The position numbers were made by a program. From Candidatus Collierbacteria bacterium (GTDB taxonomy: Bacteria > Patescibacteriota > Microgenomatia > UBA1400 > JACPES01), in assembly GCA_016183365.1 (NCBI GenBank), contig JACPES010000003.1, positions 409,154 through 473,153 on the forward strand: DNA of 64,000 nt, given 5' to 3'. Each line of letters begins with the position of its first letter. Position 1 is the stretch's first letter. Shown in pieces: positions 15,001 to 57,000 of the stretch.

Positions 15001-18000
15001 ATCGGGAAAATTGTTTTCAAACAGATTTTTTATGCTTATGTTTTAACCGTTCTGGTTGTCTTTCAGCCGATGCGGATGTTTGTCGGGTCAGGGGTGACTA
15101 GTGATGCTTTGATGAATTTAATTTATCCCGTAACGATATTGCTGTTGTTAAAAGCTGATCTTTTGCCAAGTTGGAAGAATTTGACAGTTTTGATTTTGGC
15201 TTTGGCTGCTCTTTTACTGACGAAAATCCAAGGCGTTTTCCTGATATTGATTTCATCGATTCTTTGGTTGAAAGTGATTACCGGCCGGAAGTATAAGATC
15301 GGTCCGAAATTGATATCGGCCGTAGTTTTGTTAGTGATAGCCGCGGCTATTTCCATCGGAATAATCAATCGGACAACTTTTGGGAATGTTATTCCGAATT
15401 TGTTGCGGGCTAACATGTTTATTCCCGAAATTGACGACAGCGTTGGCTTAAATTCTCAACCATTTTTAATCGACTATATTAAAACTTCGGTTATTGATTT
15501 TTATCGCCAGGTACTGCCGTGGTATTGTGGGGTTTACCGGTGGCTGTCTCTGACATTACCGTTTTGGGTTTATAGGGTTATTAAAGCGATTATGTTAGTT
15601 TCTTTGTTCGGTTGGATAATTGGATTTAAGAAAATAAAAACTGTTGTGAACTCAAGACCGTTAATATGGCTAATATTCAGCAGCGCGGTTTACACGTTGG
15701 GTATATACGCTTGGAATCTATTATTTTGGAAAAGCAAGGGATTTTCATTCGGAATTCAGGGAAGATATTTTTTCCCCAATTTGGCGGAACATATGGCTAT
15801 TTTAATAGTCGGATTGTTGATTTTATCCCCGGCCCGCTTTCGCAAGCCGGCGGGTTTGACCGTAGCCGCGCTGATGATATTTTTTAACTGGTTTTCATTA
15901 TGGTTTATTTCCCAGTCTTACTACGGCAGTATCATAAATTATCAAGCATTTTTTCTGCGGGCCAGCCAATACAAACCCTGGTTCTTTAAAACACCGTTGT
16001 TAGAAGTGTGGTCAGGATTGGGAATATTTATGAGTCTATGGTTTTTATGGAAGATGGGAGTAGAATTGTTTAAGCAAGAAGCAGGAAACAAGAAGCAGGA
16101 AACAATGACGGTTTAATTCATTGCTTCTTGTTTCTTGTTCATTGTTTCTTAATTTAATAATGTTGAACGAAATTGGATTTACAAGATTAGTTAAATACTT
16201 TATCTTTGGTCTTTGGGACCAGATTTTTAGCTTTTTGCCTTGGTCTCCGCTAAGAGTTTTGTGGATGAAATTGTTTGGGGCCAAAATACCTTGGTCAGCG
16301 GTCATTGACAAAGTTAACTTCATGAATTTAGACAGAACCGGATTGTCCGGCCTGGAACTGGGACGGAAAGTTTTCCTGGGATTGGGATCAATAATCGATT
16401 TAGCCGGAAGAGTAGAGATTGGTGATCATGCCACAGTTTCCCCCGGATCAATAATTTTAAGCCATCTGTCTGTCGGGTTTTCCGATCATCCTTTAATTTT
16501 AAGGTATCCGAAAAAGATCGAAAAAACCGTTATCGGCGCCGGAGTTTTTATTGGGGCTAACACTACAGTGCTTTCAGGGGTTACAATTGGCAAAGAGACA
16601 ATGATTGGGGCCGGAACCGTAGTTACTAAAAATATTCCGGAAAAAGTGTTGGCGGTCGGTGTTCCGGCACAGGTTAAGAAAATGATTGATAAATAATGGT
16701 TGATTAATGATGAATGATGGATGAAACAATCGAATTATCCATTATCCATAAGTTAACATATGTTTAATCGCGTTATCTTAATATTAATTCCGGTGACAGC
16801 GGCGGCTATCGGCCAAATGATATTAAAAATCGGAATGACCCAAGTTGGAGAAATTAAGTTTTCAGACGGTTTAATAAATGTCCTTTGGAAAACATTTTCT
16901 AATTTATATGTATTAGGCGGCCTGGCATTTTTTGGAGCGAACGCTTTATTGTGGTTGGTAGTTTTATCGCGGGAAAAATTGTCTTTTGCTTACCCAATGG
17001 TGGCTTTTGCCTATATCGTTACCATTCTCTTAGCTAAATTCGTATTGCATGAGGATATTCCATTATTAAGGTGGGCTGGTTTAGCTGTGATTGTTGTTGG
17101 GATATTGATGATTGCCAAAAGCTCAACGTAGAATTTTCAATTTACAATTTACAATTTTCAATCAAATCTCAATTAATCAATTTTCAAAAAATCTATGTTT
17201 GTGTAATTGAAAATTAAGTCATTGAAAATTCATTGTAAATTGAGAATTGAGAATTGAAAATTAATAAATTACACGCAGCGAAAATATTTCTGGCGGGGAT
17301 TTTAGTTCTGGGATTGACGTTGCGGTTAGTCTATCTGCGGGAGTGGTTTCATTTCGAATTTGACGAAGAAGTGATTGCCTGGAAGTTAAGGCAATTTATA
17401 ATAACAGGGAAACCCTTTTTGATCGGCGGCGGAACGCCGTTTGGGTTTCATCTTGGTCCGGCGTTTTATTATCTATCGGCGATTCCGTTATTTTTTTCCC
17501 GTCTTGATCCTATAGGCTGGGGGGTAGCCGCAGCGGTTTTCGGGACTGTATCAGTTTGGCTGATGTGGTTTGCCGGAAAAACTTTATACAACCAACGAAT
17601 TGGGTTGATAGCAGCGTTAATATGGGCGACAAGTTTTACAACGGTAATGACCGACCGTCACTGGTGGCCGTTGGTATTGGACCCGATGTTGTCGTTGTTG
17701 GTAATTTTATGTTTATACAAAATTTGTGTCATTCCCGCGAAAGCGGGAATCTATTTAAATAGATTCCGTGTCAAGCACGGAATGACATGGATTGCGTTGG
17801 GATTGACCCTAGCATTTGCCTGGCAAGCGGACTTGACGGTTCTACCTTTATTTTTGGCGGCGGTCGTAGTCGCAATTCGGAATTGGCTAAGTCAGAAAAG
17901 AGAAGTGACGATAACTGTTTTAATTCTATTGGTTTCGGTTATGCCATTAGTATTGTTTGAATTCCGCCATCCGGGAGTTAATCTTGGAAAACTTATACAA

Positions 18001-54000: not shown

Positions 54001-57000
54001 TGACAGAGGTGAACAAAGAACCAATTATGGCGTCGGCAAAAGAGGTGCAATTTAATCCAGGATCGAGGAGCGCCAAACTAAGAGTCGCAGAGAAATTATG
54101 AGATTAATCGTTTACGTCATATTATTTGTCAGCACGGTTGTGATCTTGATAAATTTAGCCATGACCAATTCTTTGGCTTCAGACGGGAGAGGCTTGGCCG
54201 GATTAATGGATAAAGAAATAGAATTGAACTCGATAACAGCAAATTTAGAAGCGGATATAATGGTGGCCGGATCAGTGTTTTCAGTCGAAAGCAGAGCCAA
54301 GGAATTGGGCTTCAACTTACCCTTGAAAGTGGTGGCTATTAAACCTCTGCCAATAGCCTCTAAAGGTGATTAACAGAGTTAGAATCGTAGTTTTATTTTC
54401 GTTTTTTTGCTTCATGGCAGTGGTGGCAAGATTGTTTTATTGGCAAATAATCCGAGGCAAAGAACTGGCAGCAAAAGGCCTGGGGCAATATTTTTATACC
54501 CTGTCTTTGCCGGCCAGGCGCGGTGAAATATTGGCTGTGGATGGGTCGGTTTTAGCCGGATCAAAACCATCATATCTGCTTTACGCTTACAAACCTAATT
54601 TTTCGGGAGACTTTAAGGAGGTGTCAGTCCGGTTGGCGGATTTGTTAATGTTTGAATCAGAGAACGAAGCCTCTCCGGGGGCGAAATCTTTTGATGATAT
54701 AAAAAGTGATTTTGCAAATCAAATATTTTCTAAATTATTTAAAAAATCAGTCTGGGAGATCTTGGTAAAACGATTAGATTCTTCCCAAAAAAATGTTATA
54801 GATACTTGGCATATTCCGGGTTTGGACTTTCAGTCTTCCTGGTCCAGGTTCTATCCTGAAGCCAGTTCTGGAGCTCATATTGTGGGTTTTGTAGGGCAGG
54901 ATGCCGCCGGCCAGCCTAAGGGTTATTCCGGTTTAGAAGGATATTATGAACGGGAATTAAAAGGCCTTTCCGGCAATTTAAAACAGGAAAAAGATGTTTT
55001 CGGTAATCCGATCCTAGTGGGATCTTTTTCGGAAACTCAAGCAATATCCGGCAGGACGATTTCAACTTATATTGATAGATATGTCCAAAAGATTTTAGAG
55101 GTTGAGCTTTTGAAAGGAATGGATAAATACGGAGCCGTAGCCGGGGAAGCAGTAGTTATGGATCCAAGAAACGGAGCGATGATTGCTTCGGCTTCGTATC
55201 CTAATTACAATCCAACCGATTATTGGGAATTCGACCAGAAGTGGTTAAAAAATCCGATCATTTCCGAAGGATACGAGCCCGGCTCGACGTTTAAAACAAT
55301 AGTCATGGCGGCGGCGCTGGATAGCGAGGCGGTTGAGCCGAACACCAAATGCGATATTTGCGCAGGCCCGATTAACATCGGCCAGTATCTAATCCGGACT
55401 TGGGACGGAAAATATCACGACGGTATTGATATGACAGATACTATCGTTCATTCTGATAATACCGGAATGGTTTTTGCCGCCAGAAAGCTTGGTAAGGATA
55501 AATTGCTGGAGTATATTAAAAAATTCGGGTTCGGGAGTCTATCCGGAATAGATCTTCAGGGAGAAACCTCTCCGAACCTAAGACCGGAACTTAAGGATAT
55601 TGATCTGGCTACCATCTCTTTTGGCCAGGGAATAGCTGTGACTACTATTCAGATGTTGAGGGCGGTTGCGGCCATCGCCAATGACGGGATAATAGAAACA
55701 CCTGTTTTAGCCGAAAAAATCGGCAGTGACAGTCAAAATATGCTTTTCGTAAATAAAAAACCAGGGGAAAAGGTGATTTCTAAAGAAACCAGCGAAAAGT
55801 TAAAAGAGATGATGGTAAAAGCCGTTATCAATGGTGAAGCTAAATTCGCCGCCCCCAAAGGCTACAGAATTGCCGGTAAAACCGGTACTGCTCAAATTCC
55901 GGTGGCCGGCCATTATGATAATGAAAAAACGATTGTCAGTTTTGTCGGGTTTGCTCCGGCCGATAACCCAAAATTCGCCATGATTGTTAAATTAAGAGAA
56001 CCAACCACTTCTCCCTGGGGATCAGAAACAGCGGCGCCGTTATGGTTTAATATAGCAAAGAAGTTATTGTTGTATTGGGAGATAGATCCTGATGAATAGC
56101 AGAGCTGTAGATTTGAAACAATGCGATCCTAATATCCGAATTCATCCGAATGATCCGAATATTCAGGATTCGTAGATTGGGATCGCTTATCATGTTGCAA
56201 TTATTAAAAAACTATCTCTGGCATTTGCCAAAAGCGATTATCGCCAACGTCATCTACGGCTTTCCGGCTCGAAAGTTGTCTTTGATCGGAGTTACCGGGA
56301 CTAAAGGCAAGACCACAACTTCGCATTTGATATATTATCTTTTAAAAGAATCAGGGTTTAAAGTCGGCTTAATTTCAACCATCGGAGCTTTTTTATCCGG
56401 AAAAGAAATTGATACAGGGTTGCACATTACCAGTCCGGATCCGAATGAACTGCATAAATTGCTGAAGTTGGCGGTTGATTCCGGGATTAAATATGTGGTT
56501 TTGGAAGTTACTTCAAACGGTTTGGATCAATTTCGGGTGTGGGGAATTAAATTTAAAGTAGCGGTGATTACCAATATTTATCCGGATCACTTGGATTATC
56601 ACGGGACGATGGAGAAATATGTGGCTGCCAAGGCAAAAATAATCAGGCAGGCGGAGACGGTGGTGGTGGCGAAGGATTCGCCGTACTTTGAAGAAACAAA
56701 AAACAAAGAACAAAAAATAAAAAACAGGATTGTAGCTTTTGAATCTAGGGGTTCGATGGTTTCTGCCAATAGGGCAGCAGCGGTGGCGGCGGTGGAGGTC
56801 TTGGAAATTAAGTCATTTAAGGAACTTAAGAAGCTTAAGTTACTTAAGATGCTGGAGAATTTTTCCGGAGTGCCGGGGAGAATGGAAACGGTATATGACA
56901 AAGAGTTTAAAGTAGTGATTGATTTTGCCCATACGCCGGAGAGTTTGGCGGCGGCTTTAGGGGAGTTGAGAAAGTTGGTTAAGAAAAATGGGCGATTGAT

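Follow-up and report, generated by a model that had tools for sequence, protein, structure and literature searches.

The short palindromic repeats that interrupt essential and cell-envelope genes of a groundwater Candidatus Collierbacteria bacterium (CPR), in the manner of Rickettsia palindromic elements (RPEs), are probably copies of a small, non-autonomous selfish element. The element would be a miniature, without an ORF, of an IS-like unit of the form hairpin–ssn–hairpin, and would be mobilised in trans. As best read, the element is an RPE-like and MITE-like derivative of such a unit, with mobilisation as the step that we infer, and its arms, which are Ssn-recognition hairpins, suggest how elements of this sort might move.

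The true unit of the element is 59 nt long (17728-17786 in the window, which is the whole 64-kb stretch of DNA that was analysed), or 61 nt with the flanking T…A. It is an imperfect palindrome in which two inverted hairpins, each made of GTC, an 8-bp stem, a 4- or 5-nt loop and C, enclose a 10-nt AT-rich palindromic spacer, and its layout can be written as GTCATTCC-stem/GAAA/stem-GGAATC-TATTTAAATA-GATTCC-stem/TCAAG/stem-GGAATGAC. The sequence GTCATTCC was observed 8 times in the window with 1.9 expected, a count reached in none of 100 shuffles, and the central palindrome GGAATCTATTTAAATAGATTCC, with up to 3 mismatches allowed, has 3 matches in the window and an expectation of 0. Among 35 unique copies, the base at position −1 is T in 32 and the base at +1 is A, likewise in 32, and a target-site duplication, checked at lengths of 1 to 5 nt, was seen in at most one of the 35 at each length. 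A long-spacer variant of the element and composite forms also exist. The original prediction had given 69 nt for the copy at 17728, of which all but the 59-nt unit is host sequence, and 102 nt for the copy in rsmH, where the net gain over empty orthologues is 81 nt; its argument that the lengths of these two copies are multiples of three was built on boundaries that were wrong.

Five copies had been predicted in the window, at 9332, 17728, 28387, 47647 and 53903, and all are at those places, together with a sixth, decayed remnant that is newly found. Common ends and a central palindrome had been ascribed to all five, but the 9332 copy is a chimera with no central palindrome, one arm of the 47647 copy is eroded and the rsmH copy starts with GTTATTCC. 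Three genes are interrupted, and in each the insertion is in frame, as had been claimed; a single open frame is used throughout. The first codes for a GT39/PMT_2-like glycosyltransferase (17254..18891, forward strand; 100% identical to NCBI HYU89_03455 of Candidatus Collierbacteria bacterium), and holds the canonical element in frame on the forward strand at 17727..17787, T and A included, where it encodes VIPAKAGIYLNRFRVKHGMT. This copy matches copies in other genes of L007 and L041 at 59 of 59 positions, and its single-stranded DNA is predicted to fold with −17.1 kcal/mol (z = −6.35). At a second site of the same gene (18215..18281, forward strand) lies a different SRM-type hairpin element (GTCATCCTGAG...), also in frame.

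The second interrupted gene (27421..30333, forward strand) encodes a conserved 970-aa membrane protein of unknown family, and its copy, in frame at 28386..28542 on the forward strand, is an expanded composite, each of its two hairpin loops holding further, nested palindromes. This composite adds 138 nt relative to the orthologue in L015, which has no element at the site, and its part at 28425-28541 is 90.6% identical to positions 774-890 of L015, which lie in a different gene. Further in-frame hairpin elements of other families occur in the 970-aa gene at 27704-27756, 27882-27917 and 29323-29359, and several hairpin families colonise genes in the window, the GTCATTCC family being one among them. 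The third gene is rsmH (MraW, the 16S rRNA m4C1402 methyltransferase; 53136..54101, forward strand; Pfam PF01795, E = 2.4e-93), whose eroded copy begins with GTTATTCC at 53913 and runs to 54004 on the forward strand, its second arm being enlarged. Compared with empty orthologues, the gene has a net gain of exactly 81 nt (27 aa), an insertion that lies at about 53904-53984 and encodes RSVVIPAKEGIYLDRSQVKQFDSPMLT; as ssDNA, this copy folds with z = −1.97. Outside genes, a copy in reverse orientation lies at 47646..47707 on the minus strand, between a Bac_transf and a DUF4012 gene that are separated by 1 nt in the syntenic relative L001, and its eroded arm reads GAAATGAC. The other intergenic copy, the chimera (9331..9424, forward strand; fold z = −4.06), joins a left arm of the GTCATTCC...GGAATC type, its loop expanded, to a right arm of the GATTGC...GCAATGAC type. 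The newly found remnant is internally deleted (SPARFRKPAGLTV; 15826..15864, forward strand) and sits inside the ORF at 14497-16116; at the orthologous site, relatives have an intact copy, and L038 and L064 carry VIPAKAGIYLNRFRIKSGMT. The rsmH copy and this remnant are cases of decay after insertion.

Comparison with orthologues shows that the inserts are lineage-specific insertions. RsmH has 321 aa here and 293-294 aa in its homologues, and in the protein alignment all homologues at 81% identity or less are without the insert, while in the GT39 and 970-aa proteins the presence of elements is patchy even among close relatives. Site comparisons at the DNA level agree with this; in MurC, for example, the relative L059 has an element where the source organism (L019) has a cleanly empty site. 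An origin of the segment as an ancestral module with a peptide function, or as an artefact of assembly, which the conservation of the peptide among copies might have favoured, is refuted by these orthologues, and also by independent assemblies from different sites that reproduce the insert: Logan assemblies made from other sequencing runs (L019, L020) contain the 321-aa RsmH, and a Rifle groundwater assembly (L004) has RsmH with the insert at 97.8% nucleotide identity. In the AlphaFold model of RsmH, the insert (residues 259-286) is the sole internal stretch with pLDDT below 50, a predicted disordered loop of low confidence within an otherwise confident fold, which also speaks against a functional module and points to a tolerated position.

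The way in which the copies vary bears on the same question. The 59-nt element has one open frame among the six, with the peptide VIPAKAGIYLNRFRVKxGMT, and all genic copies are read in it; of the 35 unique copies, 12 are deep inside long ORFs and about 7 more are at gene ends. The peptides had been described correctly; at their variable codons the amino-acid changes are non-conservative. The GTC and the trailing C of both arms are invariant across 24 distinct copies, the stems of both arms are paired in 99.0% of 408 cells, as compared with 22-53% in a slid-register control, and 28 cells have a double change where shuffles give 7.8 ± 2.6 (none of 500 reaches 28). Both hairpins are kept by compensatory change, and this is seen even at orthologous coding sites. 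The variation of the element tracks DNA base pairing and not amino-acid similarity, which counts against a functional peptide module, and the peptide of about 20 aa added to host proteins is a by-product of insertion. Elements persist in genes only in the open frame, one of six, and in permissive loops.

Several observations indicate movement between sites. Three copies in different genes and genomes, some of them intergenic, are identical at 59 of 59 positions, composite copies at different loci reach 90.6%, and the flanking genes are at 73-82%; copies nested within copies were found in L024 and in L029, L031 and L056. The range of the family is narrow, its members coming from genomes of Collierbacteria and Roizmanbacteria and from a small number of groundwater metagenomes. 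Most of the "empty" orthologous sites are occupied by another palindrome or by a remnant. The elements turn over at shared sites. At site 1 of the GT39-like gene, orthologues either share the element or have another palindrome or elements of other types in its place, and at site 2 the relatives P0122, P0123 and P0126 have a GTCATTCC element and P0125 a composite form. That different lineages hold different palindromes at the same loop positions would also be expected if the elements were immobile, slippage or templated repair of hairpins having created them in situ in hypervariable loops and convergence having made them alike, but this is strongly disfavoured by the identical copies that different genomes have in unrelated genes and at intergenic sites, by the nesting, by the recurrence of the same composite at different loci and by the sharply conserved ends. 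The original interpretation of the copies as RPE-like is borne out at the level of behaviour, in the lineage-specific presence, the identity between genes, the nesting and the open frame.

The arms connect the element with the single-domain GIY-YIG Ssn nucleases, which bind a class of ssDNA hairpins and cut a few nt upstream of the hairpin (PMC11893778). The published SRM regex is HGTCWYN(0-2)YYVSBRHN(0-5)WNVSBRGN(0-2)RNCYNB, and NTS is defined as CGTCATTCCCGCGMAVGCGGGAATCYRG with at most 1 mismatch (PMC11893778). The left arm of the GT39 copy, 17727-17754, fits the regex, the one match in the window as opposed to 0.12 in shuffles, the other arms being compensated stem variants; it differs from NTS at 2 positions, the first and the last base, and is one mismatch beyond the strict NTS definition. 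The arm tGTCATTCCCGCGAAAGCGGGAATCtat includes the dRS3 motif ATTCCC-N8-GGGAAT. The upstream GTC and the C that directly follows the palindrome, which orient the hairpin and are invariant here, are critical for cleavage and binding by SsnA (PMC11893778). By sequence, each arm of the 59-nt unit is an Ssn-related motif of the NTS/dRS3 type. The original prediction had overlooked this relationship of the arms.

A candidate for the partner enzyme comes from L051, a short contig of a more distant, 35%-GC CPR-like organism. It encodes a 98-aa single-domain GIY-YIG protein (PF01541, E = 2e-17, profile positions 1-77 of 78) that retains the catalytic Tyr/Tyr/Glu (YVY...YVG...E) and is close in length to the norm of about 94 aa of the Ssn family (cd10448), and which is a candidate Ssn-like nuclease. 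The ORF has identical 25-nt arms on both sides, the downstream one belonging to a composite element, and is bounded by sequences that resemble the two halves of the element's long-spacer variant. The protein is 52.6% identical to that of a GIY-YIG gene flanked by canonical NTS, and its homologues in L120 and L080 (47-53% identical) have canonical NTS hairpins as flanks. A further homologue, on the Collierbacteria-like contig L042, is accompanied by its own, different hairpins. The association of hairpins with GIY-YIG genes recurs in unrelated contigs that were retrieved solely by DNA pattern.

Some findings count against a role of Ssn. In the window and 10 kb beyond either end, together 84 kb of the 588-kb source contig, neither an ssn or other GIY-YIG gene nor a transposase gene was seen; the ssn-adjacent composite is on a distant organism's short contig, and the L042 homologue has different hairpins; neither 59 nor 61 nt is a multiple of 3; the strict SRM regex is matched by only a single arm of the window; and Ssn is known solely as a transformation-modulating nuclease, and not for strand transfer, integration or transposition (PMC11893778). 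These points leave some room, on balance not very much, for RPE-like selfish palindromes spread by a Y1 enzyme (RAYT/IS200-IS605-type) or an IS110-type enzyme encoded elsewhere, or purely by host recombination and gene conversion, with Ssn merely restricting or regulating hairpins and adjoining one in L051 because hairpins are its targets and not its cargo. The absence of target-site duplication is compatible with IS200/IS605 or IS110 chemistry as well, and the holding of the same sites by different hairpin families suggests conversion or replacement. Set against this other route, a motif-only screen of about 570 kb of related loci gave no Y1 or IS110 gene, the ends are of the GTC-hairpin-C form (the Ssn motif) and not of the GTAG-type REP motif, and the GIY-YIG gene lies between identical arms in an association that is found repeatedly.

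The nearest known relatives of the arms are the NTS/dRS3 repeats of Neisseria (PMC11893778), with which they share the dRS3 motif, the fit to the SRM regex, the invariant GTC and trailing C and, in the related contig L051, the small single-domain GIY-YIG gene between hairpins. In contrast to those repeats, two hairpins are fused here, in inverted orientation and across a fixed AT-rich spacer, into a discrete unit of 59 nt whose ends are sharp and flanked by T and A, and the host is a CPR bacterium; Patescibacteria are absent from the main text of Chenal et al. 2025 (PMC11893778). The NTS repeats of Neisseria are clustered near genes for membrane proteins and have a modulating effect on transformation (PMC11893778), and the copies of the present element are concentrated in genes of the dcw cluster and in those for glycosyltransferases and membrane proteins. 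Together with the compensatory upkeep of hairpins at coding sites, this could mean that the hairpins are domesticated host marks on cell-envelope and cell-division genes that modulate recombination of incoming ssDNA, with the in-frame peptides as a tolerated side effect. We consider this improbable, however, as at least one third of the copies are genic and in frame here, as opposed to the 2% of NTS inside genes in N. meningitidis (PMC11893778), and as copies decay in place and are patchy among close relatives; a selfish origin, moreover, remains compatible with domestication.

As for the RPEs of Rickettsia (Ogata et al. 2000, 2002, per PMC10969869), the element resembles them as a short palindromic repeat in frame in unrelated conserved genes and absent from orthologues, with a family-specific peptide at permissive, fold-tolerated positions, no obvious transposase footprint, and several families side by side in a host-dependent genome of reduced size. 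At about 100-150 bp (PMC10969869), RPEs are longer than the 59-nt unit, and their hosts belong to another phylum; the present element, unlike them, comes with a candidate partner enzyme and with a unit that looks autonomous. As the present host belongs to the CPR and the units are of different length, the likeness is a functional resemblance only, and homology to the RPE families (RPE-1 to RPE-10) is not claimed.

Bacterial MITEs (Correia, QMITE, ERIC, Nezha and others) share with the element the miniature size, the terminal inverted repeats, the strong hairpin potential, the occasional in-frame genic copies and the probable derivation from a larger, gene-carrying unit. The element is still not a classical MITE, as it has terminal inverted repeats but neither target-site duplication nor a related (DDE) transposase was seen, and its ends are protein-recognition hairpins. 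The REP/BIME repeats with their RAYT (IS200/IS605-like Y1) are similar in having hairpins, often as inverted pairs, a small nuclease gene between its own hairpins, a presumed action on ssDNA and no target-site duplication; unlike them, the element has GTCAT/ATGAC ends and no GTAG/CTAC motif, the gene adjacent to it in L051 is GIY-YIG and not HUH-Y1, and its copies are frequently genic and translated where REPs are extragenic, and an assignment to REP/RAYT was rejected. The small dispersed repeats of cyanobacteria are reportedly very small and palindromic, nest in one another and occur within genes, as the present elements do. To our knowledge, no nuclease partner is known for them, and their sequences are unrelated to those described here.

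In the reading that we prefer, that of a miniature mobilised in trans, the element would be processed or mobilised at those stages of replication, repair or transformation at which the DNA is single-stranded; an Ssn-type nuclease would act at its GTC-hairpin ends, host repair would complete copying and insertion, and the inserted copies would then decay, as the rsmH copy and the remnant at 15826 may have done. More tentatively, and with rather less likelihood, the 59-nt double hairpins might be the miniature of an unrecognised class of mobile elements that have ssDNA-hairpin ends and, as their sole gene, a GIY-YIG (Ssn) nuclease of about 95 aa, which would cut the hairpin ends and leave host repair to paste the element without target-site duplication, a class that might also underlie the RPEs. 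If this were true, the same mechanism would lie behind other in-frame "protein-coding palindromes", including the Rickettsia RPEs, the mobilisation of which has been unexplained since 2000.

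The 59-nt double-hairpin family is a sharp-ended, lineage-specific and recently active set of elements whose copies nest, turn over, decay and lie in frame in conserved genes. Inspection of the sequence at all five places named by the original prediction confirmed a copy at each. Three of these are genic, one per ORF, in the GT39/PMT_2-like gene (17254-18891), the gene of the 970-aa membrane protein (27421-30333) and rsmH (53136-54101), and translation of the three ORFs yields the peptides that had been predicted. The proposed element boundaries, at 69 nt and 102 nt, did not hold, as the canonical unit is 59 nt. 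In the window, GTCATTCC occurs 8 times against 1.9 expected, and the 22-nt central palindrome, with up to 3 mismatches, 3 times against 0 expected. Rfam at the gathering threshold and a tRNA scan gave no match in the window. The window comes from a Candidatus Collierbacteria (CPR/Patescibacteria, Microgenomates) of groundwater. A 545-aa protein encoded in it is 100% identical to NCBI HYU89_03455, on a 588-kb contig, and the closest source-named homologues of RsmH, which matches PF01795 over its full length, are from Collierbacteria and Microgenomates. A Coxiella QMITE, or a Coxiella origin, considered in view of the 42% GC, was rejected, as homologues put the window in Collierbacteria. Every 2-kb bin of positions 1-64000 has a positive GC skew, and the long ORFs from about 13.8 kb onward are nearly all on the + strand, which places the window within one replichore.

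Copies were gathered from the window and by scanning 185,579 species genomes and metagenomes; 35 unique copies are canonical, and a further 17 have expanded arms. The canonical 59 nt read GTCATTCC-NNN-GAAA-NNN-GGAATC-TATTTAAATA-GATTCC-NNN-TCAAG-NNN-GGAATGAC. The flanks, which the original prediction had proposed to compare for target-site preference, carry T at -1 in 32 of the 35 canonical copies and A at +1 in 32 of 35, and no target-site duplication was found among these copies. Since the two loops are unequal (4 nt and 5 nt), the unit has an orientation, and exactly one of its six frames is open. This sole frame reads VIPAKAGIYLNRFRVKxGMT. Twelve of the 35 unique copies lie deep within long ORFs and about 7 more at gene ends, and all of them use the open frame. 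The keeping of this single frame by every genic copy argues that the inserts are probably translated, rather than bypassed or removed.

As single-stranded DNA, either strand of the element adopts a four-way junction, with three hairpins and a terminal stem (-17.1 kcal/mol, z = -6.35). Among 24 distinct copies the arm hairpins are 99.0% paired, and double changes fill 28 cells compared with 7.8 +/- 2.6 in shuffles, none of 500 shuffles reaching 28; in slid registers, pairing falls to only 22-53%. The variable positions are restricted to the loops and the inner three base pairs, G·T pairs are almost absent, and the amino-acid substitutions to which the variation leads are non-conservative (K/Q/E/N, R/P/Q/L, H/S/P/C/Y), which together indicate a constraint on nucleic-acid pairing and not on the peptide. 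Copies at the same position in a PMT-like gene also show compensatory differences, outer stem included (GTCGTTCC…GGAACC).

That the segments are lineage-specific insertions, as originally supposed, was borne out by alignment of the RsmH and GT39/PMT_2-like proteins with their orthologues. RsmH has 321 aa here, compared with 293-294 aa in homologues, and its alignment contains a single clean 27-aa block (a gain of exactly 81 nt at the DNA level) that is common to one 95%-identical relative only and missing in all homologues at up to 81% identity. An assembly artefact is excluded because insert-bearing rsmH was recovered independently in Logan assemblies from other sequencing runs and, at 97.8% identity, in a Rifle groundwater assembly. 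In the GT39/PMT_2-like family, element presence is patchy and independent of overall similarity, with different elements occupying the same loop in different lineages, and presence in the 970-aa family is likewise patchy. An AlphaFold2 model built on the RsmH alignment has a confident fold (mean pLDDT 81, pTM 0.82), in which residues 259-286, corresponding to the insert, are the sole internal stretch with pLDDT below 50 and are modelled as a loop from helix 244-257 to strand 289-291. In this model the RsmH insert agrees with the pattern of Rickettsia palindromic elements (RPEs), which are inserted at structurally permissive positions.

Occupied and empty pairs were also found in other genes among the fetched loci, the clearest being murC, where the relative L059 has the element and the source organism itself has a clean, empty site. 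This pair differs by +78 nt, an extra partial terminus included; the unit itself, at 59 or 61 nt, has a length that 3 does not divide. A clean net gain per insertion was sought and not obtained; most “empty” sites hold a different perfect palindrome, a GCAATGAC-type hairpin, a divergent copy or what is left of a decayed one, as at 15826-15864 of the window. Some resemble element termini, which may reflect target preference, microhomology or the footprints of excision.

Three copies in different genes and genomes (window 17728, L007:2971 and L041:197, the latter two on retrieved related contigs) are identical at 59/59 positions. The expanded composite in the 970-aa gene has 90.6% identity to a copy at another site in the syntenic relative L015, compared with 73-82% for the flanking genes. 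Some copies interrupt others, hairpin loops contain further palindromes, and the rsmH copy is eroded (ssDNA fold z = -1.97). The composite core is rare: the species genomes have it at only 8 places, of which 7 are in a single Collierbacteria MAG and the remaining 1 is in a Roizmanbacteria MAG, and the metagenome scan gave 44 loci, chiefly from a few groundwater samples. A protein search with a 30-aa segment, too insensitive for a count of host proteins, returned only 17 matches, mostly spurious ORFs over NTS-like or CRISPR arrays in other bacteria.

The arms of the element are hairpins of the NTS/SRM type. In Neisseria, the NTS is CGTCATTCCCGCGMAVGCGGGAATCYRG and includes the dRS3 repeat; SsnA, a 94-aa single-domain GIY-YIG nuclease, binds it as ssDNA and cuts a few nucleotides upstream; cleavage depends critically on the GTC, and binding on the C that follows the palindrome (Chenal et al. 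2025, PMC11893778). In many phyla, ssn genes have degenerate Ssn-related motifs (SRM) on both sides, an IS-like arrangement of hairpin–ssn–hairpin; these motifs are most abundant in symbionts, Rickettsia and Wolbachia among them (Chenal et al. 2025, PMC11893778). Window positions 17727-17754 (TGTCATTCCCGCGAAAGCGGGAATCTAT) fit the SRM regex, with the NTS differing at the first and last base only, and both GTC and the C after the palindrome are invariant in both arms of all copies. The strict regex matched one arm only in the window, and a looser structural scan for GTC-AT…AT-C found 6 hairpins there, compared with 1.1 in random sequence. The generic arm pattern is widespread beyond CPR; viral or prophage contigs that carry it number at least 120. 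In contrast to the Neisseria NTS, of which 2% are inside genes (Chenal et al. 2025, PMC11893778), the genic fraction here is at least one third.

A screen of about 570 kb of related loci for a partner gene found, in a related organism, an Ssn-like gene flanked by identical arms. It is on L051, a contig from Hainich groundwater that belongs to a more distant, CPR-like organism with 35% GC; the 98-aa ORF encodes a full-length single-domain GIY-YIG protein (PF01541, E = 2e-17). The 25-nt arm GTCATTCCGGGCTTGACCCGGAATC stands immediately upstream, extending into the ATG, and an identical arm stands immediately downstream, as one arm of a full composite element. The ORF borders, TATATG… and …TTTATATAGATT, are like the two halves of a long-spacer variant of the element, and the 29-nt left end of the unit is present in five contigs. 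Homologues of the protein occur on loci retrieved by the DNA arm pattern alone: L120 (52.6% identity), with canonical NTS hairpins in inverted orientation on either side, and L080 (47%), with five arms in about 350 nt. Another homologue (51%), with its own variant hairpins, is on L042, a Collierbacteria-like contig on which a composite element is also present. No such nuclease gene was found by GIY-YIG motif scans of the window, by inspection of 78 small ORFs by eye, or in the 10 kb beyond each end of the window, which together cover 84 kb of the source genome.

A long-spacer subfamily has the same arms around a 19-22-nt AT-rich spacer (L014 2333-2400, L042 11736-11805, L044 3094-3161, L048 6297-6364, L060 13221-13291), some of these spacers including an ATG and then a very short ORF. 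A solo arm with TATATG stands exactly at the start of PMT-like genes on two contigs (L007 1620-1650, L023 12080-12110), with the same 29-nt end that precedes the GIY-YIG ORF of L051; judging from the sequence, the ATG of these genes appears to be supplied by the element spacer.

The phenomenon is wider than the 59-nt family. The window carries several other palindromic families, many within ORFs, and comparison of its genes with orthologues in three syntenic relatives gave 25 indels of at least 5 aa, merging to 22 regions. Hairpin potential is much stronger in the inserted DNA than in control coding DNA (mean z -2.33 vs -0.40), with z below -2 in 9 of the 22 regions and in 19 of 200 controls (Mann-Whitney p = 1e-5).

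Several of these sequences can be described individually. An 82-nt palindromic family with a GTACCAGACGGTAC core is in frame in a GT4 gene, a 510-aa ORF and a GT2 gene (45741-45822 (+), 22814-22895 (-), 31541-31605 (+)); two copies are 98% complementary, and copies are missing or shorter in the syntenic L001 and L015. Another double-hairpin family, AATTATTTTC-CCGCAAAGCGGG-ATC-AGGCTTTGCCT-GAAAATAATT, has three copies (27357-27410, 27704-27756, 36847-36899). Besides an intergenic copy, there is one within the 970-aa gene, in frame (AEQGPASRDKILSN), and another that makes up the final codons of a GT4 gene. The hairpin families AAGGCCAGGCCTTT…AAAGGCCTGGCCTT (27882-27917, 33896-33931, 52557-52592) and AAGGAGTCTCC…GGAGACTCCTT (7932-7965, 29323-29359; also in L015) have some copies inside ORFs. 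Two Logan contigs of the same organism, L017 and L018, end near the palindrome at 7932-7965 (~7.9 kb), consistent with short-read assemblies breaking at such repeats. At three gene boundaries (13698-13789, 34543-34607, 56119-56183), an intergenic array of the octamer ATCCGAAT precedes the inverted form, ATTCGGAT; these arrays may act as terminators or as regulatory sites. Distant places in the window share short tandem arrays with a period of 7-8 nt, of the types ATTGTTAA, TCAACGT and AATTCAGA (10165-10211 and 51679-51733; 10837-10864 and 45283-45310; 35146-35197 and 42764-42808). Downstream of the dcw and cell-wall genes, a HEPN and nucleotidyltransferase pair (PF05168, PF01909; 62315-63009) looks like a toxin-antitoxin pair.

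In the light of these observations, the hairpin–ssn–hairpin unit may itself be a present or former mobile element, of which the composite element would be an ORF-less miniature. An Ssn-type nuclease would act on the element ends in ssDNA, with copying completed by host repair, and selection would remove genic copies save those in the single open frame at tolerant loops. Both ingredients, in-frame palindromic elements and Ssn-related hairpins, are already known; their combination is new, as are the discrete double-hairpin unit and the high genic fraction (at least one third), and the CPR host also appears to be new. Literature searches found no description of such elements in CPR, no link between RPEs and GIY-YIG proteins, and nothing relevant on Patescibacteria and MITEs.

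In-frame “protein-coding palindromes” have been regarded as peculiar to Rickettsia and a few other intracellular bacteria, and we know of no prior record of them in small CPR genomes; the present findings extend them to the Candidate Phyla Radiation. Several element families affect essential genes (rsmH, and murC in a relative) along with a large cell-envelope glycosylation cluster. Through the Ssn ssDNA nucleases, which were described in 2025, the elements gain a concrete partner that is open to biochemistry, making their movement directly testable. For annotation, the inserts make proteins longer, introduce spurious differences among orthologues and are repeats at which assemblies break; for protein evolution, the elements are a source of novel loop sequence in the proteins of minimal genomes.
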